From IMG/VR virus record IMGVR_UViG_3300031825_000008, positions 1-64,000 of that record: a DNA stretch of 64,000 nt; one strand, 5' to 3'. Below are positions 17,565 to 57,537 of this stretch, piece after piece. The position numbers were made by a program, and so were the translations under genes. This DNA is from a virus. Each line of letters opens with the position of its first letter. The first letter of the stretch is position 1. The notes beneath the pieces are model-generated. The model did no database searches, was not told the origin of the DNA, and saw only the letters and a list, made by a program, of their open reading frames with translations.

Positions 17565-17591
17565 ATACCTATAGCCGATCAGGCGTTTGAG
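17565..17591. repeat. 27-bp motif, copy A (exact inverted copy at 58759-58785)
   Basis: ATACCTATAGCCGATCAGGCGTTTGAG. Overlaps the last codons and the stop of the SNF2 helicase gene. Confidence 0.9.
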
Positions 17592-18991
17592 CGCGTCCGT
17601 CGCAGGGCGCGGACGGCATCGACCACAGCGGTCGCTAAATCAGACTTCTTTTCCATAGCGTACAGTTGGGCACGGTCAATGGGAGACATAACCGGGGCAA
17701 AATACATGCACATTCGGTCTTGCTCACCGCGATGGATACGATCTTGGACCTGAAGCATGTCACGTTGGTTGAACGACAAATCATGGAAAAACATGCGATG
17801 GCACCTGTCCCGCCCCTCACCAGCAATCAACGTATGTCCCATTGCAGTCGCACCGATCTGACCGACTAAAATTCGACACGTAGGGTCGTTGTTAAATTTG
17901 TTTTTTTGTTCAGCCAACTCTTCTGGTTTCATCGACCCTTTGATATAAGCTGGATTTAGACCTTCTTTCTTATATAGGCTGAACAAAGCGTCCCCCATGG
18001 CCTTGTAAAAATAGACGGTTATCATCTTCCCGTCTCCTGACTCCATTAAATCAAGAGACGCTATAGCCTTAGGATTTTTCTCAATAGGTTCGATTAACGC
18101 CATCTTATCACCGTCTAACAACAGACCACTAGACACCTGCCTCAATTTGTCGCTTTGGACTAATACGAGGTCCGCTGTAAATTCGTGCTTGTCCAACAAC
18201 GTGTAAAAATCTTCCAGCATTTCTCGATAATGTTTTTCTTGCTTTGTTGTCATCTGTAATGGGAGATTAGGCCACACTTTCTCAGGGGCGTCTGCCCACC
18301 ATTCATCCTTTGTGGCGCGGATCGAACACCGCTCTTGGATAGCATGTAGCTCTTTTTCATTTTTTACACCGACAATCTGTTTACCCATATACCCGCCAAC
18401 CACTGCATAGCGGTTGCGGAACACGTATGGGTTAACCCCGTCCAACTCCCCGATTGCCTTCAACTGCGGGAATAAATCCATAACATTTTGAACCAAAGGT
18501 GTACCATTTAGTAAGCGAACGCCTGCTGCTCGTTTGCTCAAATCGAGAATCGATTTAGCTGTCTGGGACTTATAATTCTTAATGTAAGACGACTCATCGA
18601 CGACCAACAAACACGGTCTGGAGTCCAGTAGTGCCTGCACCCGCTCGCCCCCTGTACTGCGCACAGCTTCAAAATTTATAACATTTAAGCAGGGCTTGTC
18701 AGGTGTTCCATGTTTCAACGCGTCGCGTGGCCACATGGTCGTCTCGATTTGATCCAAACCCCACTCGTAGGGGGCCTCTATCCACGAACTTTTGAATGAA
18801 TTAGGGCAGACCACTACTACAGTGTTTACGTCTCCGAAATTCTCGATCCAGTCGTTCAGTGCCAGCGCGGTCTTCCCCAGTCCTTGGGACAACCACCATC
18901 CATATTTCTTCTTGCCATGACACCGTTTTAGTGCTTCGACCTGAACCGGGTATGGTTTACCTTTGAGGTGCCACGCTGGATTGTAGTTCAT
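17579..18991 (-). CDS. SNF2/RAD54-family helicase
   Basis: Motifs LSQGLGKT (I), LLVVDESS (II), LLNGTPLQN (III) and QVQDRIHR (VI). Confidence 0.85.
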   Translation of the reverse strand: MNYNPAWHLKGKPYPVQVEALKRCHGKKKYGWWLSQGLGKTALALNDWIENFGDVNTVVVVCPNSFKSSWIEAPYEWGLDQIETTMWPRDALKHGTPDKPCLNVINFEAVRSTGGERVQALLDSRPCLLVVDESSYIKNYKSQTAKSILDLSKRAAGVRLLNGTPLVQNVMDLFPQLKAIGELDGVNPYVFRNRYAVVGGYMGKQIVGVKNEKELHAIQERCSIRATKDEWWADAPEKVWPNLPLQMTTKQEKHYREMLEDFYTLLDKHEFTADLVLVQSDKLRQVSSGLLLDGDKMALIEPIEKNPKAIASLDLMESGDGKMITVYFYKAMGDALFSLYKKEGLNPAYIKGSMKPEELAEQKNKFNNDPTCRILVGQIGATAMGHTLIAGEGRDRCHRMFFHDLSFNQRDMLQVQDRIHRGEQDRMCMYFAPVMSPIDRAQLYAMEKKSDLATAVVDAVRALRRTRSNA

Positions 18992-19392
18992 CTAACGTGT
19001 TTCCAATCTTCTCTTTTCAATATTTTATAGATCGTAGTATGTGACACCTTGAACCTCCTAGACAAAGAAAGTCCACTGTCGGTACTAGATCGTATTTGTC
19101 TTATGTCTTCCTCTGTTAATTTGGAGTTCACGTCTTCTTCTCCTTTGGGAGACACTAATCTACCTTTGTCTCTCATATCTCTATTGTTGTCTGCTTGCGT
19201 ACCCAAGAACAGATGCTCAATGTTGTAGCAAGAGGGGTTGTCACATTTGTGCAACACTTTAAGTCCAGTAGGTATAGGCCCTCGGTGTTCATCCCACGTC
19301 GCTCTATGTTTGAGCCACACTTTCTTTTTATACCACACCATTCCGTAACCGTGGGCGTTACGTGCTTTATGCCACTCAACACAATCGGTCAC
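18988..19392 (-). CDS. HNH homing endonuclease
   Basis: CVEWHKARNAHGYG...HRATWDEHRGPIP...VLHKCDNPSCYNIEHLFLGTQADNNRD. AT-richer than its flanks. Probable GTG start in a GTGA overlap (ORF is open to 19428). Confidence 0.85.
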   Translation of the reverse strand: MTDCVEWHKARNAHGYGMVWYKKKVWLKHRATWDEHRGPIPTGLKVLHKCDNPSCYNIEHLFLGTQADNNRDMRDKGRLVSPKGEEDVNSKLTEEDIRQIRSSTDSGLSLSRRFKVSHTTIYKILKREDWKHVR

Positions 19393-19814
19393 TTGAATTC
19401 TTTCCACCAATACAGAGAGTATGGCCACGCCCAGCCGGGCTGCGGGTCGAACATCATGTAGCCTGATTTTATGAAGTTGTTTGCCGATTCGACACTAGAA
19501 GTCGTGTCGGAGATTATGCCGTTCCACCCGTGTCGCTTGGCCCGTCTCTCCATTACCCGCATCAGACGACGCTGGAGCCCGTGCCCCCGAAACACGGGCA
19601 GGACCCCTACGCGGATAAAGTAACCGTAATTATCATACCACGTGGAAGGGATCAGACCTATGAACGCGGCGGGGATACGGCCCTGATAAGCGATCCACCA
19701 ATCCCCCTCTGCGTAGTTAGGGTGAGCAGTACCTTCTTCAAAGGTAGCAATATGTAATTCTCTAAGCAGGTCTTTTTCTTCTTCACCATCAACCTCTTCT
19801 ATTTTAAATTCCAC
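19389..19814 (-). CDS. GNAT-family N-acetyltransferase
   Basis: Acetyl-CoA motif A: RVGVLPVFRGHGLQRRLMRVMERRAKRHGW. Confidence 0.8.
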   Translation of the reverse strand: MEFKIEEVDGEEEKDLLRELHIATFEEGTAHPNYAEGDWWIAYQGRIPAAFIGLIPSTWYDNYGYFIRVGVLPVFRGHGLQRRLMRVMERRAKRHGWNGIISDTTSSVESANNFIKSGYMMFDPQPGWAWPYSLYWWKEFK

Positions 19815-20391
19815 GGCCCCCCTCCGTATAATGGGCCTTGATCGACGGAAGGACGGTCGTCTGCCACAACATCGACAGCTTGCCTTCCTCGGCGGGGAGG
19901 TCGCGCCACGACCCCTCCAACGACGTCATTCCCTTCTCGATGCAATATTCCACGACCCGGTTGCCCATTCTATGTTGTCCGATAAGGAACAATATCGCGT
20001 CGAGTTTGTCGGCGCAATGGACAATACGAATGGCCTCGTCGTGTTGTGCGTCAGTAGCCTCCATACGCTCGGACAGATCGAGAATAGACGGCATCTTTTC
20101 TTCCATCTGCTCGTAGATGAAATTAGCGGCCTTCTCTTCGTCGATCACATGTTTCTTGGCAGGACCGATAACGTCTCCGGTGATAGTCTCGTCGGCGTCG
20201 TGGATCAGGGCTTGCCACATTAGGTAATCCATCGGCCCCTTCCACCCAATCACGTCCGCCATAATTCGTGAATATATGGTCACGTAGAACGAGTGCGCGG
20301 CGACGTTGTCCCTATTTCCAGCCATAAGAATGGCCCAGCGCGGGACGAACGCCATGGTGCGCAGTTCAGGGGAGAAGGGGTTTGTTTTCAT
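19804..20391 (-). CDS. datZ: HD-domain (YfbR-like) phosphohydrolase; DatZ-type dATPase candidate
   Basis: NVAAHSFYV (H) and LIHDADETITGD (HD..D). Lies next to the MazG and PurZ genes. Confidence 0.6.
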   Translation of the reverse strand: MKTNPFSPELRTMAFVPRWAILMAGNRDNVAAHSFYVTIYSRIMADVIGWKGPMDYLMWQALIHDADETITGDVIGPAKKHVIDEEKAANFIYEQMEEKMPSILDLSERMEATDAQHDEAIRIVHCADKLDAILFLIGQHRMGNRVVEYCIEKGMTSLEGSWRDLPAEEGKLSMLWQTTVLPSIKAHYTEGGRGI

Positions 20392-20454
20392 TTAGGACCC
20401 ATATTTATGATAGTTCCAATCATGAACAGCGCAGACCCGATTAGATAACACCAA

Positions 20455-20829
20455 TTAGCCATCTTTTCTACCGAACCTCTCGTCCAGCTTAACGATGTTG
20501 GCGTCCATAATCTCTTCCAGCGTGAAGCCAAACCGCTGCGCGATCCTCACGAAGTAGTGCAACTGATCGCCCAGTTCGAGCAGCAGATCGGCCTTAATGT
20601 CCCGACCGTCCCGGACGTGCTTTTTCAGGAGTTCGACTACCTCGCCGGTCTCGCCCGCGTAGCCGGTCGCCATGATAAACAAACTCTTGAGATCGTTCTC
20701 ATAGTGATCGTCCGTCCAGTTGTTTCGAACATACGCCTGAAACGACAAGCTGTCGGTCTTCATTTTCGGCAGTGCGCCGAAACCTTCCACGATTTCGTAG
20801 TCCAAGTCCGGATTGAAAGGTCCACCCAT
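20455..20829 (-). CDS. mazZ: MazG-like all-alpha NTP pyrophosphohydrolase; MazZ candidate
   Basis: Motifs ETGEVVELLKKH and ELGDQLHY. 124 aa. Confidence 0.65.
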   Translation of the reverse strand: MGGPFNPDLDYEIVEGFGALPKMKTDSLSFQAYVRNNWTDDHYENDLKSLFIMATGYAGETGEVVELLKKHVRDGRDIKADLLLELGDQLHYFVRIAQRFGFTLEEIMDANIVKLDERFGRKDG

Positions 20830-21098
20830 TAATTCCTCCTATACTTCCAATAAAGCGCGAGCCATACGAGGTTCGGGAGTAGCGCTACAATCGTCCCGCC
20901 AAGTGACCACCACTGGTTGAGGTGGGGGAAGTAGTAAAGGTCCCACACGCCCCAAGCTGAGAACGCGGCGCATGGCCAGTAACTCACTCCGCGTACCGAT
21001 TTGTCCTTCCACGCCCGTCGCACGTTCAGCCAATTGAGCAGACCGGCGACGAGCAGAAAGCACGAGTTTATTAAGTCAGGTGACCACGTAATGCTCAC
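20829..21098 (-). CDS. Small 3-TM membrane protein (SemiSWEET/PQ-loop-like by eye)
   Basis: 89 aa with three hydrophobic helices; segment AWKDKSVRGVSYW lies between TM1 and TM2. Coupled at both ends (overlaps purZ by 23 nt; TAATG with mazZ). Confidence 0.4.
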   Translation of the reverse strand: MSITWSPDLINSCFLLVAGLLNWLNVRRAWKDKSVRGVSYWPCAAFSAWGVWDLYYFPHLNQWWSLGGTIVALLPNLVWLALYWKYRRN

Positions 21099-22170
21099 CC
21101 GCGTCCTCCGTGGTCGGCCCCCACTGGTAGATTACCTTGGGCGGCGGTTGCATCAACACTTTGCTGGCCGATTGGATTGAAGCGACGATCTGGTCGAACA
21201 TCGGCTTTTCCTTCACGTAGTTGCAGAAGGTCAGAAATACGTAATCTGGGTCGCAGATATTGAACGTCTCAACGAGTTGCTGCATAGAGAAGGTGAAAAC
21301 TCGACGCACCCGTTTGGTAACGGTCGTAATTTCAGCTTCAACTCCGAGTTCTTCCCATGAGGTTTCACGCTGGTCGTAAAAGTGAGGACCAGATGTTCCG
21401 AGTGTAGCTCCATCTTCCACGATGTTTCCAACTCGGATAGGGAACGTTCGTAGCGTGACCATCGTCCCGTTGTAAAACTGGGGATGGATGTTAGCATCTG
21501 AGAGTCCCTGATTAGGCGTACAGTCTCTAGAAGTTGTGTAAGGGTAAAAACCCGAGTGGTTGAGGCTGAGGGACACACCTTGCGGGACCTCCACGAGTAC
21601 CGAATTGCCAACGCGTAGCTGGCGGTTCAAATCCACCACACCTTTGGTGAACTTCGCGAGGAATGGGTGGTCCTTTGCCACCATACCGGTTCGCAGGACC
21701 TTGCGAGAGAGCGCTTCGCCGACCCCCTTGCGAGTGGACGCAATTTTTGTCTGCCCGCTGTCTGCTCTTCCCTCCGCCTCTTTACACTCGTCAGTGATAA
21801 CTGCGGCGTAGGGATGGATAAAAAGAGGTCCGTTGAACGGGTTGTCATTCAGTTCTTTCTCGAACCCCACCGGATCAATGATCGCACCAGCATTCAGATA
21901 CACGGTGCCCGCTTTGCCTGATCCGAGTTCGTCCTGCGCGATAAGCGACGCAGTAGGCAAATGAAACACAACCCTTCGACGGCCTTTGTGTATGGAAGTG
22001 TGGCCAGCCTGAGCAGCCGCATTAGTAGTGACAATGTCGAACGCGCGACCTTCTTTAGCGAGTTCATACGCGGCCCACGCAGCGGCGCATCCTTTTCCTT
22101 CACTTCCCCACTGACCCCCGATCAGTACGCTCGCGAACCCCTTTACTTCGAACCCCGTCAGTGGACGCAT
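21076..22170 (-). CDS. purZ: PurZ (PurA-family N6-succino-2-amino-2'-deoxyadenylate synthase)
   Basis: GGQWGSEGKG (PurA has GxQWGDEGKGK, so Asp is Ser here), AGHTS, ASTRKGVG, PQGVSLSLNHSGFYPYTTSR, IRVG and TKRVRR. Short form of 364 aa from ATG 22170, which has a GGAGAAG RBS. Confidence 0.78.
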   Translation of the reverse strand: MRPLTGFEVKGFASVLIGGQWGSEGKGCAAAWAAYELAKEGRAFDIVTTNAAAQAGHTSIHKGRRRVVFHLPTASLIAQDELGSGKAGTVYLNAGAIIDPVGFEKELNDNPFNGPLFIHPYAAVITDECKEAEGRADSGQTKIASTRKGVGEALSRKVLRTGMVAKDHPFLAKFTKGVVDLNRQLRVGNSVLVEVPQGVSLSLNHSGFYPYTTSRDCTPNQGLSDANIHPQFYNGTMVTLRTFPIRVGNIVEDGATLGTSGPHFYDQRETSWEELGVEAEITTVTKRVRRVFTFSMQQLVETFNICDPDYVFLTFCNYVKEKPMFDQIVASIQSASKVLMQPPPKVIYQWGPTTEDAGEHYVVT

Positions 22171-22567
22171 TAGACTTCTCCAATCTTTCTCTGATTTTAG
22201 CCAAGATTTGATCGATGGTGGACCCCAATACGCCGGTCTTGGCCCGGTCATCGATTAGGTTCCCGTAGGCTTGGGCGTCGAGTAGGATGGCGCAACAGGC
22301 CATGACGTGGCCGAGGTGATGGGCAAGGCTGTCAGGAGCGTCCTCTTCTCCGTCTGCCCAAAGTTGAAGGTGACGCGCCGCCGCTGCGATATAGACGCTA
22401 GCTTCGACCTTAGTCTCGCGGAATTTGTACGGACCATATTTGATTTCACCATCAAACATTGCGTGCGCCATGTGGGCCATTGCTACCGGGGGCAGTAGGA
22501 AGAGATTTAGCTTCTTCGCCCCCGCTGTGGCCTTAGGATTGGTTGGGAGTGTATTTGCAGATTTCAC
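22100..22567 (-). CDS. dATP/dGTP diphosphohydrolase-like protein (DUF5664-type N-terminal domain)
   Basis: NPKATAGAKKLNLFLLPPVAMAHMAHAMFDGEIKYGPYKFRE...AAARHLQLWADGEEDAPDSLAHHLGHVMACCAILLD matches the recalled family consensus. Confidence 0.55.
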   Translation of the reverse strand: MKSANTLPTNPKATAGAKKLNLFLLPPVAMAHMAHAMFDGEIKYGPYKFRETKVEASVYIAAAARHLQLWADGEEDAPDSLAHHLGHVMACCAILLDAQAYGNLIDDRAKTGVLGSTIDQILAKIRERLEKSNASTDGVRSKGVRERTDRGSVGK

Positions 22568-22958
22568 TGACTATGACCTCTTCTCGTCTTCCACGCGGTA
22601 GTAGTACGTAATCGTCGACAGCAAGCGGGGGCATTGTTTCCTCGTCCCCGACCATGCGGTAAACCTTAATATACAGCCCCTTGTCGCTCCTTACCCCTGA
22701 AATTACACCACCCACCCCATCAGAATTTATGTATTCTCGTAGCCATTTAAGCTGCAGCGGAGTGACGGCTGGCGTGATTTCGGATTTCATCTTCGGCATG
22801 TCGTCAATCTTCACTTCCCACATGCCCGTGTATTTACTGGGCAGCTGTAGTAACAGATCAGGAACCCCCACCAGAAACCGGCTCGACATTTTGTGGGCGA
22901 AACCCCCCACCTCCCGCGCCGCTTTCGCTATCAGACTTTGAAATGCCAGTTCCTTCAT
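22533..22958 (-). CDS. PD-(D/E)xK nuclease (VRR-NUC / resolvase-like)
   Basis: GVPDLLLQLP...GMWEVK core motif. Confidence 0.6.
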   Translation of the reverse strand: MKELAFQSLIAKAAREVGGFAHKMSSRFLVGVPDLLLQLPSKYTGMWEVKIDDMPKMKSEITPAVTPLQLKWLREYINSDGVGGVISGVRSDKGLYIKVYRMVGDEETMPPLAVDDYVLLPRGRREEVIVSEICKYTPNQS

Positions 22959-23124
22959 GTTCCTTGATCCTTACGATCTTAGCGGTCGGCTCCAGCACGT
23001 GCTCCGCAGCGTCCAGTTGTTTGCCCATCCCCGCGTCCACCGCGTCCTGAAAGGCGTCTTCCCAGTTGTCGCGGATCGGGGCGATAGCCACTCCGTTCAC
23101 TCTGAACTGATACATGTAACTCAT
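22858..23124 (-). CDS. Hypothetical protein
   Basis: 88-aa ORF. The first ~55 aa look coding; the tail runs 100 nt into the nuclease gene in another frame. Confidence 0.35.
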   Translation of the reverse strand: MSYMYQFRVNGVAIAPIRDNWEDAFQDAVDAGMGKQLDAAEHVLEPTAKIVRIKEHEGTGISKSDSESGAGGGGFRPQNVEPVSGGGS

Positions 23125-24974
23125 TCTTCAACTCCAAAAGTGGCCTCTGCCCAGTTGCGACCTTCGCCTGCATCGACCGCCATCGGGACGTCCAACTTTA
23201 TCAGGCAGTTGGGTCCAAAGTCAGTCATAATTTGAAGGCAACGGTCGTAATGCTTGCGGTTGTCTTCCGAGAACGAATAGTCGATAGCATCGTGAACGTT
23301 GTTGAGCAGGCTGATCGGTCGCCCCTCTGACGCCAGATAGTCGTCGATTTCGACCATCTTCAACTTGAGCACGTCCGCGTTGCCGCACTGTAGCAGGCGG
23401 TTCACCGCCGTGTAGGCTTTGTTCGGGTCATTAAGTCGTGCACGGCGACCCAATAGGGATAGCACATAACCTCGGGCGCGCATCGTCTGCTCGGCGCGCT
23501 TCTGGAGCGGCTTAATCTCAGGGAGACGTTTGAAATACTCCCTAAGCTGACCATCCACCTTCTCAGGGTCCGCACCGTATTTCTCAACGATCACCTTCTT
23601 CCCGCCGCCCGTAATGAGGGTCTGGTTGATGCGCTTACCGACCTCACGGGCGTCCTTCTGTGCCGCCTTGTCCATCAACTCCCATTCAGGGTTCATGGCC
23701 TTGGCAACCGCCGTGTGGGCGTCTTCGAACGGTTGCTTACGATATCCGTTGAGAAGAACTTCACTGCGGCTGTAATAGGCGAGCAGACGTGGTTCGCACT
23801 GGCTGTAGTCGACCGAACCCCAAATTTCGCCGTCGTCAGGGACGAAAATCGAACGATGGATGCGGCCAATTTCGGCGTTACGCTTGTTGGCCTGCTGCAT
23901 GTTGGGGTTGCTGGACGACAGCCGTCCGGTCACCGTCCCGTATTCGTCTCCCCGCAGCTGGTTGAATTCGGGGTGGACGCGCCCTTTCCACAGATGGGTG
24001 TCGATCATCGGCTCAATGAACGAATTGAGAAGGTTCGACCACTTGCGAACGGCCACTATGTTCTGGCCCGCCGGGTACTTTATAAGCCACGCTTCCGGAA
24101 ACGACGGTGAGCCCTTAGGCGTCGTCGGCCAGTCCGTGTGCCCAGCCTCTTCCATGATCTTACGCACCTGAGAGGGGGCGCGCGAGTTGAAATCATCAGG
24201 CAGCTTGCGAAGGGCGTCCTCGCGTTTGCTCTCGGCCAGCGCCTTGATATTCATTAGGCGCTCTTCGTCGATCTTGATACCGTGCAACATCATTCGTGCC
24301 AGCACCGGGATCATTCGACATTCAATGTCGTGCACCTTGGCCAGTTCTTGGTCCATGATGCTTGTCACTTGTTTGTAGCGCAGCTGCCACGTCGACGTGC
24401 CGTCCGTCTCCGCGTAGTCGACGGCGATAGGGTCATCACCCGCTAGGCACCAATAGTAGCCCATCGCGCCCTTGCCTTTGCCTGCGGCCTCGGGCACGTT
24501 AGCCATAATATGGTCGTAAATGGCGATCTTTTTAGGCTGCACCCCCGCTAGTTGAGAGCAAACGTCCAGACTGAACCCCGACTGCCATTCGTTCAGGAGT
24601 GGAGCGTTAATCGCGGTGTCTTCGAACCGGCCCTCGATCTTGAGACCCTGCCGGTACATGAATTTGATATCGAAGTTGAAGTTGTGGCCGAACTTGAACA
24701 CGTCCTGACGGGACAGGCGCTTGATGATCGCTTGCTCCATCGGGTGGATAGAACCATCCCACCCATCGTTGGTCTGCGGGACGGTCACACCTTCGATGTT
24801 ACCTCCGGGCCTGTGCCGGAACGGCAGGTAATACGAGTCGTCCGGACGCTCGCCAAACGTGAGCACGTACCCGATAATGTGGTTCTTGCGCCAGTCGAGG
24901 CCAGTAGTTTCGACGTCGACACAGACTTCATTAGAGACTTCGAGACGCTTGAGGGCTTCTTCAACTCTGCTCAC
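23121..24974 (-). CDS. dpoZ: Family-A DNA polymerase with 3'-5' exonuclease; DpoZ candidate
   Basis: Exo motifs VDVETTG, HNFNFD and YAETD. Pol motifs VDYSQCEPRLLAY (A), KRINQTLITGGG (B) and NVHDAI (C). GTG start in a GTGA overlap (ORF is open to 25094). Confidence 0.8.
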   Translation of the reverse strand: MSRVEEALKRLEVSNEVCVDVETTGLDWRKNHIIGYVLTFGERPDDSYYLPFRHRPGGNIEGVTVPQTNDGWDGSIHPMEQAIIKRLSRQDVFKFGHNFNFDIKFMYRQGLKIEGRFEDTAINAPLLNEWQSGFSLDVCSQLAGVQPKKIAIYDHIMANVPEAAGKGKGAMGYYWCLAGDDPIAVDYAETDGTSTWQLRYKQVTSIMDQELAKVHDIECRMIPVLARMMLHGIKIDEERLMNIKALAESKREDALRKLPDDFNSRAPSQVRKIMEEAGHTDWPTTPKGSPSFPEAWLIKYPAGQNIVAVRKWSNLLNSFIEPMIDTHLWKGRVHPEFNQLRGDEYGTVTGRLSSSNPNMQQANKRNAEIGRIHRSIFVPDDGEIWGSVDYSQCEPRLLAYYSRSEVLLNGYRKQPFEDAHTAVAKAMNPEWELMDKAAQKDAREVGKRINQTLITGGGKKVIVEKYGADPEKVDGQLREYFKRLPEIKPLQKRAEQTMRARGYVLSLLGRRARLNDPNKAYTAVNRLLQCGNADVLKLKMVEIDDYLASEGRPISLLNNVHDAIDYSFSEDNRKHYDRCLQIMTDFGPNCLIKLDVPMAVDAGEGRNWAEATFGVEE

Positions 24975-25174
24975 GCTTCCGTCACTTTCTCGTACATTCG
25001 GTTCAGAACGGCCCATTGCTTGGGACTGAGGTACATTCGCGCTCCGTATTCCTTGTAGCGCTTCTCTTGGTCCGCGAAGAATCCCGCCTCCCACTCGCTC
25101 AGCTTGGTGCGACGGTCGGCGAGGGTGATCATGTATTCCCGTAGCTTCTGCTCTTCTTCGTCAGTCAACGGCAT
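24971..25174 (-). CDS. Hypothetical protein
   Basis: GAGGAAG RBS; 67 aa. Confidence 0.5.
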   Translation of the reverse strand: MPLTDEEEQKLREYMITLADRRTKLSEWEAGFFADQEKRYKEYGARMYLSPKQWAVLNRMYEKVTEA

Positions 25175-50303: not shown

Positions 50304-50768
50304 ATGGCCCTTATTACCAAAGGTTCGTGGACGCGCCCCAGTGACGGCAAAGTGTTTCGCATCGGCCAGCGCGTGCGGGGGTGGAGTTCTCTTGGCAGCA
50401 TCGGCAAGACCAAGGAAGGGTACACCGGCACGGTCGTCCATTTCGACCCTGACTGGTCGGTCAGTCATGGGGCGATAGTACAGTTGAGACTATTCGGGCT
50501 GAACCCCTATGGCTATCCAGAGGGTCGGTTGGTATCCGTGTGGTGCAAGGGATTGGAGCCGCTAGCCGCCCCTCTCACCATTGATTCCCGCCTCACCTGT
50601 CGCGACCCTTCCATCAAGGTCCTCTCCGTTAGCGCGACAGGCGACAAGGACCGCCCAATCGGCGCGACCGTGCGCGTCCAAGGCCGCGAGTTGGCTCTAA
50701 CCTACCCGGAGCACGGGCAGTTCTATGAGGGCTTCGAGCAGGCCATCGACCTCATAGGTGCGCAATGA
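50304..50768 (+). CDS. Tandem paralog 1 of 8
   Basis: TAGGAGA RBS; FRIGQRVRGW; C-terminal ...GRELALTYPEHGQFYEGFEQAIDLIGAQ. Confidence 0.6.
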   Translation: MALITKGSWTRPSDGKVFRIGQRVRGWSSLGSIGKTKEGYTGTVVHFDPDWSVSHGAIVQLRLFGLNPYGYPEGRLVSVWCKGLEPLAAPLTIDSRLTCRDPSIKVLSVSATGDKDRPIGATVRVQGRELALTYPEHGQFYEGFEQAIDLIGAQ

Positions 50769-51190
50769 CCGAGCGAAGGTTCAAGCCCGGCGACCGCGTC
50801 ATCATGAAGAGGCCCGGAAGTTTTGCTTCCCATATACCGAATCTGCAAGACGCCATTGCTGTCATCCAGAAACAGATAGATGGGACGGTGTGGTTCAAAT
50901 TTGTGGACCCTAAAGCGGCTGCGGCGTGGAAGAGAGAGTATCCACAAGACACCGCCAACAACTGCTACGCCCACCGGTTCGACTTGTTATCGGTTGACAT
51001 TAGGATCGACACCGTCCGCACCACCCGTTCGGGACTCGCCGTCTCCAACGTCGCCCGTGACGGCGACCTGATCCGCGCGGACGTTGCGGTCGACGGGCGA
51101 ACCATGACTCTGCGCTACGACCTGTCGGGGTCGTTTTATCCGGGCCACGAGTGTCCAATCGACCTGATCGGGGAGACTGCAAATGTTTAA
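50765..51190 (+). CDS. Tandem paralog 2 of 8
   Basis: ATGA coupling; FKPGDRVIM; ...GRTMTLRYDLSGSFYPGHECPIDLIGETANV. Confidence 0.6.
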   Translation: MTERRFKPGDRVIMKRPGSFASHIPNLQDAIAVIQKQIDGTVWFKFVDPKAAAAWKREYPQDTANNCYAHRFDLLSVDIRIDTVRTTRSGLAVSNVARDGDLIRADVAVDGRTMTLRYDLSGSFYPGHECPIDLIGETANV

Positions 51191-51599
51191 GATGCCACAA
51201 GTGGGCGACCACATTGAATTAGTTGATCCGGGCGTGGGTACGTCTTACGTCAGTTTCAAAGGACAACGCGCCGTGGTGGAGAGGATAAAGGAGCCCGGCC
51301 ACAAGGACACGGCCATTGTCGAGCCCAAGTTTGACGACCCGGCGGTGAACGACAGGTGGTGGAGAAGCGTGCAGGGGGGTTGTTATGCCCGGCGTTGGAA
51401 AGTTATTGACGAGTCCTTCAAGGACGTCTCCCGTCTCGTGACCCGCAACGGGTATAAAATCCTCGCCATTCACCGGCACCCGGACTGTATCGAGGCGACG
51501 ATCAAGTTGCGCAACCGGGAACTGACGCTCCATTACGGACTGACGGGCCGGTTCTACAAGGGCATGGAGTGCCCGGTCGACCTCGTGGAGGCAAAATGA
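51183..51599 (+). CDS. Tandem paralog 3 of 8
   Basis: 8-nt overlap; PQVGDHIELV; ...NRELTLHYGLTGRFYKGMECPVDLVEAK. Confidence 0.6.
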   Translation: MFKMPQVGDHIELVDPGVGTSYVSFKGQRAVVERIKEPGHKDTAIVEPKFDDPAVNDRWWRSVQGGCYARRWKVIDESFKDVSRLVTRNGYKILAIHRHPDCIEATIKLRNRELTLHYGLTGRFYKGMECPVDLVEAK

Positions 51600-52018
51600 A
51601 GAAGTTCAAGGTAGGGGACAAGGTAAAGCTTCGCTATCTGAGTTATCATCGCGTCGGCATTACGCATGAAATGCTCAGCATGATGAAGGATAAGAAGAGA
51701 GGGGTCTATGTTATCCGCCAGTTGGATAAGACGGGTCTCGGGGACGAATTTGCTAAGTTAGAAGGAGATTTGTGGAATTGGTCGTGGCCGCTGGAGGCGC
51801 TGGAACTTGGCGACAGACCCCTCAACATCGACAAGGTCAAGGGTGTGCGCGACCCCAAGCGTATCGACTTCAAAGGCGTGAAGAAGACTAGGTCCGAGGC
51901 CCGCCCGTTCAGCGGCACCGTCGTCGTGGCCGGGCGCAAGCTGCAACTGACTTGGGGCGCGGATGGCCGGTTCTATGAAGGCTTCAATTCGCCCGTCGAC
52001 CTCGTGGAGGCAAAATGA
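51596..52018 (+). CDS. Tandem paralog 4 of 8
   Basis: ATGA coupling; FKVGDKVKL; ...GRKLQLTWGADGRFYEGFNSPVDLVEAK. Confidence 0.6.
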   Translation: MKKFKVGDKVKLRYLSYHRVGITHEMLSMMKDKKRGVYVIRQLDKTGLGDEFAKLEGDLWNWSWPLEALELGDRPLNIDKVKGVRDPKRIDFKGVKKTRSEARPFSGTVVVAGRKLQLTWGADGRFYEGFNSPVDLVEAK

Positions 52019-52416
52019 AATACCCCAGACTTCAGCCCGGAGACCGGGTACGCTATGTCGGTCATAACCGAAATTGGGTGAAGGACGGAGTAACCGGTGT
52101 AATTATAGAGGATGCGCTGGACGATAGCAATGATTCCAAGGGCTATCGCAAAGTCTCAATCAAGCTGAGCAACCGCGTGCACGTTTGTCGTTTGGAGCGG
52201 TACAAGCTTGAGGTTATCGACGTCCCTATCAACCCTTCGCGCGTACGCTCCACCCGCTCCGGTCTCCCTGTCGCTAACGTGGAGAAGACCGACGGTGATC
52301 GCCCGCTCCGCGCCGAAGTGTTCGTCGACCGGCAGTGGCTCACGCTGACTTTCGCGGCGAGCGGCCACTTCTATGGTCACGTTGACCAACCCATCGACCT
52401 CGTGGAGGCCAAATGA
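52015..52416 (+). CDS. Tandem paralog 5 of 8
   Basis: ATGA coupling; LQPGDRVRY; ...DRQWLTLTFAASGHFYGHVDQPIDLVEAK. Confidence 0.6.
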   Translation: MKYPRLQPGDRVRYVGHNRNWVKDGVTGVIIEDALDDSNDSKGYRKVSIKLSNRVHVCRLERYKLEVIDVPINPSRVRSTRSGLPVANVEKTDGDRPLRAEVFVDRQWLTLTFAASGHFYGHVDQPIDLVEAK

Positions 52417-52811
52417 CTAGGTTCCAAGTAGGGGATCGCGTGGTGGTGGTCGACACTCGTTATGACGATGGTCATTCCGCAGAGTTATTGAAGGGTTTGC
52501 TTGGTAAAAAGGGAACGGTGTCTAGTCCTTATCCTTATGACCATCTTGATTATTGTCTTAGTGTTAAATGGGATGACCCGTCTATTCATTGTGGGGATTG
52601 TTATGCGTGGCGCTTTGAAATAGATAAAGGATCGCTGCTTGCTGTGGATCGTCCCATCACCACTCGCGACGGCCAACCCGTGACCGTCGAGGCCACCGGA
52701 GACCCTGCGCGCCCCTACGCCGCGACCGTGCGCGGCCAGCGTCTCACTTTTGAGCCGACTGGGCGCTTCTACCCCACCATGGACCAACCGATCGATCTGG
52801 TGAACACATGA
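52413..52811 (+). CDS. Tandem paralog 6 of 8
   Basis: ATGA coupling; FQVGDRVVV; ...GQRLTFEPTGRFYPTMDQPIDLVNT. Confidence 0.6.
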   Translation: MTRFQVGDRVVVVDTRYDDGHSAELLKGLLGKKGTVSSPYPYDHLDYCLSVKWDDPSIHCGDCYAWRFEIDKGSLLAVDRPITTRDGQPVTVEATGDPARPYAATVRGQRLTFEPTGRFYPTMDQPIDLVNT

Positions 52812-53224
52812 GCACGCAAGGCGGTTTTAAAATCGGGCAACGGGTGCGTTGTAAATATTCGGGCAACGTATTTGATGCTTATGGATTCAAAGTTTACGGG
52901 GAAACCGGCGTGGTAGGGTTTGGAGGTGTTCCAGAGTATGTGTATGTAATGTGGGACAACCCCAGACTGCGTGAGCATTTCAACAAGGGTGGAAATATCA
53001 GCCACGGTGGCGGATGGCACCCTGATGACTTTGAGAGCGCTGGAATACCGGTAGACCTTACTCGACCCGTGAAGTGCCGTAACGGCGGGACGGTCACCGT
53101 CACTCGCGTCGACGACAAGGACCGACCGTATCGCGCCACCGTCAAAGGTATCGAACTGTCGTTCGACGAATATGGCAATTTCGTCCCCGGCCAAGAGTGC
53201 CCAATCGATCTGGTGAACACATGA
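52808..53224 (+). CDS. Tandem paralog 7 of 8
   Basis: ATGA coupling; FKIGQRVRC; ...GIELSFDEYGNFVPGQECPIDLVNT. Confidence 0.6.
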   Translation: MSTQGGFKIGQRVRCKYSGNVFDAYGFKVYGETGVVGFGGVPEYVYVMWDNPRLREHFNKGGNISHGGGWHPDDFESAGIPVDLTRPVKCRNGGTVTVTRVDDKDRPYRATVKGIELSFDEYGNFVPGQECPIDLVNT

Positions 53225-57460: not shown

Positions 57461-57537
57461 GTGGCCATCGTCTAACGGCTTAGGACGATCCCTCTCTCGG
57501 GGGGTAAATGTTGGTTCGACTCCAGCTGGCCACGCCA
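57461..57537 (+). tRNA. tRNA with encoded CCA; isotype uncertain (Arg-UCU or Glu-CUC register)
   Basis: Acceptor GTGGCCA/TGGCCAC; D-arm GTCT-AACGGCTTA-GGAC; T-arm GTTGG-TTCGACT-CCAGC; discriminator G plus CCA. The anticodon arm ATCCC-TCTCTCG(G)-GGGG(G/T) does not fold canonically. Confidence 0.75.

Follow-up and report, generated by a model that had tools for sequence, protein, structure and literature searches.

Known phages with 2-aminoadenine clusters

The 2-aminoadenine (Z) pathway of phages was described in 2021 and has since been predicted in >2000 viruses (PMC13128860). In E. coli, the three genes datZ, mazZ, and purZ are enough by themselves for Z to be incorporated (PMC8342488). Cyanophage S-2L, a siphovirus, carries this triad as datZ-mazZ-purZ together with a PrimPol, and has neither PolA nor DUF5664. 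Vibrio phage phiVC8 and Acinetobacter phages of the SH-Ab 15497 type encode PurZ, DatZ, either MazZ-2 or a DUF5664-DUF550 protein, and the polymerase DpoZ. The phages Wayne (Arthrobacter) and Ghobes (Gordonia) have PurZ0, DutZ/DmtZ, DUF5664-1, and a Wayne-like DpoZ, and the stand-alone DUF5664 of Wayne was measured to convert dATP, dGTP, and dUTP to dNMPs (PMC12884076). The Ochrobactrum podovirus vB_OspP_OH (Wolominvirus OH) also already figures among the Z-cluster phages in the literature (PMC8342488). Restriction-resistant (dZ) viral contigs are enriched for the Pfam domains Adenylsucc_synt, HD_3/YfbR-like, dGTP_diPhyd_N, and DNA_pol_A (bioRxiv 10.1101/2025.10.22.683976).

The locus considered here lies in a 64,000-nt stretch of DNA (the window) from an uncultured tailed phage of ~67 kb. 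The original prediction placed a PurZ-centred 2-aminoadenine cluster in it, a reading borne out by residues, phylogeny, and the gene order of vB_OspP_OH, with Z-DNA as the probable outcome. Taken together, the block is best explained as the replication and nucleotide module of a podovirus-like phage that probably makes ZTGC-DNA.

Gene content and layout

All the genes first described at 19804-24974 are present there on the minus strand (Table 1). The order of transcription is family-A polymerase, PD-(D/E)xK-like nuclease, DUF5664, PurA homologue, membrane protein, MazG-like protein, and HD hydrolase. Most junctions overlap or abut (1-71 nt), except that the HD gene is preceded by a gap of 63 nt, and several gene starts have Shine-Dalgarno-like sequences. 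The polymerase ORF runs on to 25094, with its GTG start forming the end coordinate of the cluster.

Table 1. Predicted features of the cluster and its downstream neighbour
Feature	Position	Strand	Evidence
SNF2-family helicase	17579..18991	-	PHROG 62 2.5e-76; downstream neighbour of the cluster, conserved
DatZ-like HD phosphohydrolase, predicted dATP triphosphohydrolase	19804..20391	-	PHROG 7076 'dATP triphosphohydrolase' 1.3e-15
MazG-like NTP pyrophosphohydrolase (predicted), MazZ position	20455..20829	-	Pfam MazG 7e-6; PHROG 229 1.5e-19
89-aa protein, three predicted membrane-spanning segments	20829..21098	-	hydrophobic segments read from translation
PurZ, 364 aa, N6-succino-2-amino-2'-deoxyadenylate synthase, ATP type (predicted)	21076..22170	-	PHROG 1211 1.3e-58
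Stand-alone DUF5664-type dNTP diphosphohydrolase	22100..22567	-	Pfam PF18909 7.7e-25 (above cut-off); PHROG 801 9e-23
141-aa PD-(D/E)xK / VRR-NUC-like nuclease candidate	22533..22958	-	PHROG 93 'endonuclease' 1.7e-7
Possible 88-aa ORF, doubtful	22858..23124	-	weak 30-bit match, one relative only
Family-A DNA polymerase with 3'-5' exonuclease, 617 aa, GTG start	23121..24974	-	Pfam DNA_pol_A 2e-52, exo1 2.5e-6

The cluster is modular. Its conserved core consists of PurZ, DatZ, PolA, and the SNF2 helicase, which is found in all 30 sister loci, and the order PolA-nuclease-PurZ-HD-SNF2 recurs in >50 IMG/VR loci. The two slots either side of PurZ hold interchangeable dNTP pyrophosphohydrolases. Most sister loci also have a weak homologue of the nuclease candidate, in which a GVPD...EVK motif can be read; its homologue in a relative (85 bits) has a weak VRR_NUC match (E = 0.07). 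The 89-aa membrane protein has GGAGGA upstream of its GTG start and a homologue (104 bits) between PurZ and the HD gene on the related contig 3300043777, and gave no match in family searches (Pfam, PHROG). The same searches returned nothing for the 88-aa ORF, which is not called on the source contig.

A P22-gp10-like podovirus backbone, as originally proposed, is confirmed by PHROG 578 (1.8e-124) and Pfam Phage_stabilise, and an SU10-like portal and adaptor also occur in the window. Dut, NDT, thymidylate synthase, and dCMP deaminase, which would point to another modification, are all absent from the window.

PurZ

The 364-aa PurA homologue is also recorded, in identical form, from a contig of 67,231 bp. 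Its P-loop reads GGQWGSEGKG, with the catalytic Asp replaced by Ser as noted from the outset, and this substitution is invariant in 36 relatives. Alignment to characterised PurZ shows that T262, F295, and Y298 (phiVC8 numbering) are also kept; the roles of these residues are taken from section 8 of bioRxiv 10.1101/2025.10.22.683976. The statement that every PurA signature block is retained does not hold, as LTFCNY stands in place of the E. coli guanine-specificity block LTKLDV and the GTP base motif is lost.

Profile searches and phylogeny, the checks suggested at the start, place the protein with phage PurZ rather than bacterial PurA. The top NCBIfam model is PurZ at 187.7, below its curated cut-off of 300, and bacterial PurA models score far lower. 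A sequence search of the PDB ranks phiVC8 PurZ first (8e-43), followed by S-2L PurZ (1e-30), archaeal PurA (4e-23), and E. coli PurA (1e-10). In the tree, it is nested with phage PurZ, apart from PurZ0 and PurA. These sequence criteria identify the protein as a PurZ of the ATP type.

Helper hydrolases

Reading the HD hydrolase as DatZ is upheld by its residues. R19, W20, I22, P79, and K81 of S-2L DatZ and the HD metal ligands are conserved, with His at the position of K116, so that the protein carries the DatZ specificity residues (R-W-x-I, P, K). RWxI is common to 54 of 71 PurZ-linked HD proteins; E. coli YfbR has R-W-x-L, like phiVC8 DatZ, and the R-W-x-I signature is therefore not fully discriminating. 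Phmmer relates the protein to phiVC8 DatZ (3e-9), and Pfam to YfbR-like (1.5e-16) and HD_3 (8e-12). PDB sequence and fold searches returned YfbR and OxsA and did not return DatZ, and the protein lies nearer to these structures than to S-2L DatZ both on sequence and in a low-confidence model.

The MazG-like protein had been equated with MazZ. It keeps the four acidic metal ligands, but phmmer detects no relation to MazZ-1 or MazZ-2 and its closest homologues are in phages without PurZ, so orthology to either was rejected. Its AF2 model (pLDDT 85) has YpjD, SSO MazG, iMazG, and DCTPP1 as best folds. The protein is assigned to a generic phage MazG lineage on sequence, whereas MazZ-2 is found in 27 of 30 sister loci.

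The extra hydrolase of the original prediction is indeed present as the DUF5664 protein, its activity class being already known from Wayne (PMC12884076). By analogy, it is predicted to convert dATP and dGTP (and dUTP) to dNMP and PPi. It shares 27% identity with the N-terminal domain of the Acinetobacter DUF5664-DUF550 enzyme, and the cultured phages that carry its nearest homologues are non-Z phages.

Family-A polymerase

Exo I, II, and III and motifs A and C of the polymerase are intact. NCBIfam gives DpoZ 284.5 bits, short of the cut-off of 500, versus 239 bits for Pol I, while the PDB search gives Klenow 146 bits and phiVC8 DpoZ 121 bits. Helix O reads GKRINQTLITG, so that two positions occupied in other PolAs by Phe/Tyr/Leu and Tyr/Phe are here Gln and Thr, respectively. 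Leu at B3, Phe at B4, and the insertion after motif B, which mark characterised DpoZ, are all missing. In trees, the polymerase falls in a clade of its own, whose members are always linked to PurZ and share the helix-O motif KRINQTLITG. The assignment as DpoZ, whether phiVC8-like or Wayne-like, was thus rejected, since every DpoZ signature is absent and the PolA clade is a different one.

Proposed pathway and alternative explanations

In the proposed pathway, dGTP would be converted to dGMP by DUF5664 and/or the MazG-like enzyme, with dATP probably also converted to dAMP by DUF5664. As judged from its conserved residues, PurZ would then use ATP to join dGMP and aspartate into N6-succino-2-amino-2'-deoxyadenylate, which host PurB and host kinases would carry to dZTP. 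Known Z phages encode no gene for these PurB and kinase steps, and there is likewise none in the window. The DatZ-like HD enzyme would strip dATP of its triphosphate, which would exclude A. Finally, the linked proofreading PolA would copy the genome with Z opposite T, whether or not it prefers dZTP.

It is possible, though rather unlikely, that Z is made and the genome only partly substituted, with a non-selective PolA leaving A exclusion entirely to the efficiency of dATP removal by the HD and DUF5664 enzymes. The missing DpoZ marks would fit, as would a MazG-like enzyme of unassigned specificity in place of MazZ and the His at K116 of DatZ. However, S-2L is fully substituted with a non-selective PrimPol and DatZ (PMC8065100), the window encodes two predicted dATP-removing enzymes, and the strict linkage of the PolA clade to PurZ suggests co-adaptation.

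Far less probable is that the PurA homologue shares the function of chromosomal bacterial genes, perhaps in nucleotide poisoning or counter-defence, and not in genome substitution. Bacterial chromosomes also carry PurA-like genes whose P-loop has the Ser, in contexts that have nothing to do with Z clusters, hence Asp-to-Ser alone is no proof of Z synthesis. Of the 80 best bacterial loci, about 65 have GGQ[YFW]GSEGKG and a similar C-terminal motif, and none of these has DatZ or PolA neighbours. Their operons instead contain a kinase, an RNase-H-like domain, and a dCTP-deaminase-like protein, whereas the neighbours in the window are Z-cluster genes. The bacterial proteins also show only 30-36% identity and 100-130 bits to the window PurZ, compared with 207 bits for PurZ of vB_OspP_OH and 150 bits for that of phiVC8.

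An ordinary nucleotide-pool or auxiliary-metabolism module in a phage with canonical DNA, with the PurA homologue boosting AMP/dAMP synthesis and the hydrolases clearing non-canonical dNTPs, is just as improbable: homologues of the MazG, HD, and DUF5664 proteins are widespread in canonical-DNA phages and the PurZ and DpoZ scores fall short of the curated cut-offs, but the Ser at the catalytic Asp, the PurZ ATP motif in place of the guanine-binding motif, the nesting among phage PurZ with far lower bacterial PurA scores, and the matching gene order of known Z clusters all argue against it.

Comparison with known systems

With Z synthesis as the preferred reading, the pathway itself is known, as was stated at the start, and what is modestly new is the clade of the polymerase and the exchange of hydrolases. 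On sequence grounds, the two helper hydrolases and the DNA polymerase are of lineages different from those of the Z phages studied so far.

Like S-2L, the window has a co-oriented PurZ-(MazG-type)-HD triad, with the five DatZ residues R19, W20, I22, P79, and K81 and four MazZ acidic ligands in common, although its MazG has no detectable homology to S-2L MazZ-1. The phages of the phiVC8 and SH-Ab 15497 type share with it an ATP-type PurZ with Ser, T262, F295, and Y298, and a PolA with active exonuclease adjoining the cluster. Their DpoZ sequences form their own clade (100/100 support) and differ at B3 (Leu), at B4 (Phe), and by an insertion that follows motif B; the Acinetobacter DUF5664 is fused to DUF550, whereas that of the window stands alone. 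A stand-alone DUF5664 pyrophosphohydrolase beside a PurZ-family enzyme is also found in Wayne (PMC12884076). However, Wayne and Ghobes have PurZ0 where the window has PurZ and lacks Dut and NDT, and Ghobes DpoZ, with Phe at both B3 and B4, matches the window PolA at only 47 bits.

The closest cultured relative is vB_OspP_OH, at 43% identity for PurZ and 30% (261 bits) for PolA, with no nucleotide-level similarity found between the window and this phage. Its genome is 41 kb, compared with ~67 kb, and MazZ-2 and a DUF6378 protein fill the slots that the generic MazG and DUF5664 occupy in the window. Its motif B reads KRMAMGMLSM versus KRINQTLITG, but the B4 position is likewise non-aromatic (Ser). 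The two share the order PolA, small ORF, nuclease, DUF-type hydrolase, PurZ, MazG-type protein, small ORF, DatZ, and helicase, the last in a position matching the SNF2 helicase of the window.

Gene organisation and phage background

The predicted 2-aminoadenine (Z) genes form a co-oriented block on the minus strand, with families assigned using Pfam, PHROGs and NCBIfam. They are transcribed in the order polymerase, a doubtful 88-aa ORF, nuclease-like protein, DUF5664 protein, PurA homologue, membrane protein, MazG-like protein, and HD hydrolase, followed downstream by genes for a GNAT acetyltransferase, an HNH endonuclease, and an SNF2 helicase. Most junctions within the block overlap by 1–71 nt, Shine-Dalgarno-like sequences lie ahead of several starts, and a 63-nt gap before the HD gene is the only gap preceding a gene.

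Features of the Z-cluster and other loci noted in the window
Feature	Coordinates	Strand	Details
Co-oriented gene block	19804-25094	-	
Family-A polymerase	23121-24974	-	617 aa from a GTG start; ORF reaches 25094
ORF, doubtful	between polymerase and nuclease-like genes	-	88 aa
Nuclease-like protein	22533-22958	-	141 aa
DUF5664 protein	22100-22567	-	Pfam
PurA homologue (PurZ)	21076-22170	-	364 aa; NCBIfam, PDB, alignment
Membrane protein	20829-21098	-	89 aa; 104-bit homologue in a related contig
MazG-like protein	20455-20829	-	
HD hydrolase	19804-20391	-	
GNAT acetyltransferase	19389-19814		separates the HNH gene from the Z-cluster
HNH_3 endonuclease	18988-19428		probable homing-endonuclease insertion
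Region of lower G+C	17600-19400		0.42-0.49 vs about 0.57 elsewhere
Seven tandem paralogous genes	50304-53224		about 132-154 aa each
tRNA-Glu(CTC), single gene	57461-57537		between early-gene region and packaging genes

A metagenomic contig of 67,231 bp carries the exact 364-aa PurA homologue together with the MazG-like and HD proteins. The genes for the DUF5664 and membrane proteins, which overlap their neighbours, were missed by the gene caller on L003 and L004, the public source contigs, despite protein-level support from Pfam (E = 8e-25) and the homologue in a related contig, respectively. Automated annotation would hence miss one dNTP hydrolase of this phage. No match to the 5.3-kb block emerged from a megablast search of 50,697 phage records, indicating that there is no close cultured relative at the nucleotide level.

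The window also encodes a terminase, an SU10-like portal and adaptor, a lysozyme, a primase-helicase, Pam3 gp32-34-like proteins, and a head-closure protein of P22-gp10 type, in agreement with the backbone originally proposed. A prophage within a bacterial chromosome was ruled out as the entire window is phage-like, including the terminase, portal, head-closure protein and lysozyme. A different base modification was likewise rejected, with genes for Dut, NDT, ThyX, and dCMP deaminase all absent from the window.

The region of lower G+C spans the SNF2 helicase and HNH_3 endonuclease genes, and the latter is probably a homing-endonuclease insertion. Elsewhere, the seven paralogues share 22–35% mutual identity and a conserved C-terminal motif, G-x-F-Y...P-[IV]-D-L-[IV], and the conserved 55 nt at their gene ends were picked up as a family of direct repeats. 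A whole-window Pfam survey also identified NADAR, YAcAr/SLOG, TPM-phosphatase, AbiEi_4-like, Endonuclease VII, and two calcineurin-like phosphoesterase domains. Of these, NADAR and SLOG point to counter-defence functions acting on ADP-ribose or nucleotide signals.

PurZ

The original prediction described a PurA homologue in which the P-loop Asp is replaced by Ser, and alignment confirms this. The window P-loop reads GGQWGSEGKG, compared with QWGDEGKG in E. coli and QFGSTGKG in phiVC8, such that the catalytic Asp13 of PurA becomes Ser (S14 in phiVC8 PurZ). This Ser is invariant in 36 relatives. Other residues with roles described for PurZ (bioRxiv 10.1101/2025.10.22.683976, section 8) are also retained. 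T262 (phiVC8 numbering) is present as the Thr of EITTVTK, and F295 and Y298 are kept within LTFCNY; the corresponding motif is the guanine-specific LTKLDV in E. coli and LSFADQ in PurZ0 of phage Ghobes. The position of phiVC8 F12 is Trp, as in PurA.

Similarity searches point in the same direction. PDB matches rank phiVC8 PurZ first (8e-43), followed by S-2L PurZ (1e-30), archaeal PurA (4e-23), and E. coli PurA (1e-10). The NCBIfam PurZ model NF038379 is the top profile, though at 187.7 bits it falls below the curated cut-off of 300 bits, marking the protein as a divergent member of PurZ; bacterial PurA models score at most 84 bits. The family is large, with 1544 homologues at E <= 1e-5 and 350 clusters (50% identity) at E <= 1e-30.

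Phylogeny places the protein where the original prediction expected it. In a neighbour-joining (NJ) tree it falls within the PurZ sequences of phages and metagenomes, in a subclade recovered in 198/200 replicates. Ghobes PurZ0 and E. coli PurA, which were the only outgroup sequences, split off outside in 160/200. As with the polymerase tree below, this is a numpy-based distance and NJ bootstrap analysis in which deep branches are indicative only. The possibility that the protein is a PurZ0 was ruled out by its ATP-type motif and its grouping with PurZ.

Chromosomal PurA-like genes with a Ser P-loop

The Ser substitution extends beyond phages. When 185,579 species genomes were scanned with the PurZ profile, at least 548 relatives were returned. 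Of the best 80, about 65 are chromosomal PurA-like genes that share the Ser P-loop, GGQ[YFW]GSE[GA]KG (bacterial genome contigs L198-L267, e.g. L212:2971-6979, L218:3130-6095, L236:2962-6086, and L220:4278-6074). These genes are widespread across bacterial phyla, and among the best 80 they have no Z-cluster neighbours, with neither DatZ nor PolA nearby. The Asp-to-Ser change is weakened as a stand-alone diagnostic as a result, and the P-loop alone is an unreliable marker of Z phages.

Two arrangements recur among the best 80. In 33, an RNase-H-like (RNase_H_2), DUF429, and kinase protein is followed by the PurA-like protein and a dCTP-deaminase-like protein. In 21, the kinase and PurA-like parts are fused, often beside a Peptidase_M78 and Macro protein (PADLOC capP/DarG-like). 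The kinase part resembles that of an anti-phage dCTP-deaminase protein in PADLOC. These operons may be uncharacterised nucleotide-targeting defence operons, and literature searches found no description of them.

Three further contigs in the scan (L195, L196, L210) are phage-like sequences binned into bacterial MAGs of Gracilibacteria, Gaiellales, and Bacteroidales. Each carries PurZ, a DatZ-like protein, and a PolA scoring best against the phiVC8/Acinetobacter DpoZ references, and they may offer host hints for other Z-phage lineages.

The DatZ-like HD protein

Identification of the HD phosphohydrolase as DatZ-like is supported by its residues. All of the S-2L DatZ positions R19, W20, I22, P79, and K81 are kept (RWAI..GPAK), along with the HD metal ligands. 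W20 is responsible for (deoxyribo)sugar selection and I22 excludes the 2-amino group (PMC8065100). In the window protein and those closest to it, His takes the place of K116, which contacts the triphosphate; Lys is present in S-2L, phiVC8, the Ochrobactrum phage vB_OspP_OH, and retrieved locus L005. Across an alignment of 71 distinct PurZ-linked HD proteins, R-W is nearly invariant, and Ile is the commonest residue at position 22 (54 proteins), followed by Val (11), Thr (4), Leu (1, phiVC8), and Met (1).

PHROG 7076, annotated as dATP triphosphohydrolase, is the best PHROG for this protein, and phmmer matches it to phiVC8 DatZ at 3e-9. A PDB sequence search returned only YfbR, PH0347, and OxsA, with no DatZ. 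The AF2 model, built from a six-sequence alignment, is poor (pLDDT 65, with low confidence at the substrate-binding N-terminus and loop) and gives YfbR-like fold matches rather than DatZ; a search with it does not discriminate between DatZ and YfbR. E. coli YfbR itself has an R-W-x-L motif. Given these caveats, the predicted DatZ function rests on context and the R-W-x-I-type signature.

Two exchangeable hydrolase slots beside purZ

Assignment of the MazG-like protein as MazZ did not hold up. The alignment shows no variation at its acidic ligands E63, E66, E85, and D88, which correspond to E35, E38, E50, and D53 of S-2L MazZ, whose ligand roles have been described (PMC8342488), but it shows no detectable homology to MazZ-1 (S-2L-like) or MazZ-2 (phiVC8-like) and its nearest relatives occur in phages lacking PurZ. 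No MazZ-1 or MazZ-2 reference was matched by phmmer, and a PDB sequence search found nothing at E <= 0.01. A confident structure model (pLDDT 85) matches the small MazG enzymes YpjD, SSO MazG, iMazG, and DCTPP1, with S-2L MazZ absent among the top 50 fold matches. The 18 database relatives are 45–66% identical and include genes from a temperate phage with integrase and reverse transcriptase, a Mu-like phage, and a T4-like phage; PurZ is not nearby in any of these three.

Comparison with 30 sister loci, which carry the same polymerase type, places this gene in context. The slot holds a MazZ-2 of vB_OspP_OH type in 27 loci and no MazG-type gene in 2, and this MazG is found only in the window. 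In the window, the MazZ slot has undergone non-orthologous displacement. Base composition offers no clear indication of recent insertion of the MazG gene.

The slot upstream of purZ is also variable, containing DUF6378 proteins in 20/30 relatives and DUF5664 in 8/30. In the window it is occupied by DUF5664, as first proposed, with Pfam PF18909 (dGTP_diPhyd_N) matched over the full profile length at 87.2 bits (cut-off 27, E = 7.7e-25). The closest genes to this DUF5664 are from non-Z phages. The stand-alone DUF5664 of phage Wayne converts dATP, dUTP, and dGTP to dNMPs, with preference in that order (PMC12884076).

A PolA clade with Gln/Thr in helix O

The polymerase was expected to be a DpoZ, an assignment that its sequence does not support. 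Its gene is linked to purZ, lying about 1 kb upstream, and proofreading motifs Exo I (DxE), Exo II (NxxxFD), and Exo III (YAxxD) are invariant, with motifs A and C intact. Motif B reads REVGKRINQTLITG, with helix O KRINQTLITG, placing Gln at B3 (Klenow F762) and Thr at B4 (Y766). The usual residues at these positions are Phe, Tyr, or Leu (B3) and a nearly universal Tyr (B4). In known DpoZ enzymes, Phe at B4 (F459 in phiVC8) is the sole substitution common to both clades, and phiVC8-like members also have Leu at B3 and an insertion in or after motif B (PMC8599892, PMC10201439). The window polymerase has no Phe at B4, no Leu at B3, and no motif-B insertion. It scores 284.5 bits against the NCBIfam DpoZ model, below the cut-off of 500, and is matched by Klenow at 146 bits vs 121 bits for phiVC8 DpoZ and 47 bits for Ghobes DpoZ. 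Its best cultured relative is the PolA of vB_OspP_OH (261 bits).

IMG/VR loci retrieved with PurZ or PolA as bait yielded 95 distinct PolAs, a sample that is partly PurZ-biased and for which trees are NJ only.

Residues at B3 and B4 in the surveyed PolAs and presence of PurZ on the same locus
B3/B4	Distinct PolAs	PurZ on same locus
Q/T	31	all
M/T, M/S, M/N	20	all
L/F (phiVC8-like)	3	all
L/Y	30	10 yes, 9 no, 11 flank too short
F/Y	9	2 yes, 6 no, 1 flank too short
F/T	2 (L024, L025)	only a weaker PurA/PurZ homologue (77-89 bits) on both

The Q/T clade is monophyletic (93/100) and separate from the phiVC8-like clade (100/100), which groups with PurZ-negative F/Y enzymes. PurZ-negative sister PolAs retain Tyr at B4. 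Counting the Phe of the two known DpoZ clades, this pattern suggests that the Tyr hydroxyl has been lost repeatedly in Z-linked polymerases. A tentative reading, which we consider possible rather than likely, is that the Q/T clade represents a third, independently recruited Z-DNA replicase lineage. Loss of the Tyr hydroxyl, through Phe in the two known DpoZ clades and through Thr, Ser, or Asn in those described here, would on that reading be a convergent adaptation to copying Z:T pairs.

All PolAs in the survey with a non-aromatic B4 residue (Thr, Ser, or Asn) lie on loci with a PurZ-family gene (n = 95 PolAs; loci L012-L181).

Proposed pathway and comparison with known systems

The block most likely serves the established route, in which dGTP would be hydrolysed to dGMP, from which PurZ is predicted to form the succino intermediate dSMP using Asp and ATP. 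Host PurB and host kinases would then convert this intermediate to dZTP. The DatZ-like enzyme, and probably also DUF5664, would destroy dATP based on their predicted activities, leaving the linked proofreading PolA to replicate the genome. Taken as a whole, a Z-genome in this phage is likely.

The cluster adds one more predicted ZTGC-DNA phage, from a large uncultured podovirus-like lineage. Dozens of metagenomic relatives share its stable core of PurZ, DatZ-like HD protein, PolA, and SNF2 helicase. The slots on either side of purZ exchange dNTP pyrophosphohydrolases that are unrelated to each other: one takes MazZ-2 or generic MazG, the other DUF6378 or DUF5664. Such exchange provides a concrete example of 'functional convergence', a concept put forward in 2026. 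The PurZ-exclusive PolA clade, with its unprecedented Gln/Thr helix O, is a testable candidate for a third type of Z-DNA polymerase and a natural experiment on the role of the conserved Tyr. The cluster enzymes are also candidates for Z-DNA production in vitro and in vivo.

The datZ-mazZ-purZ triad is enough for Z incorporation in E. coli (PMC8342488), and the set of Pfam domains seen here is also the one that distinguishes restriction-resistant dZ contigs of aquatic viromes (bioRxiv 10.1101/2025.10.22.683976). More than 2000 viruses have already been predicted as Z-phages through PurZ homology (PMC13128860), hence the pathway itself is not new, as was anticipated from the outset. The window shares its gene order with the closest known system, that of vB_OspP_OH, a phage that the literature already counts among those with a Z-cluster (PMC8342488). 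Novelty lies in the swapped hydrolase and in the polymerase clade with Gln/Thr, for which no description was found.
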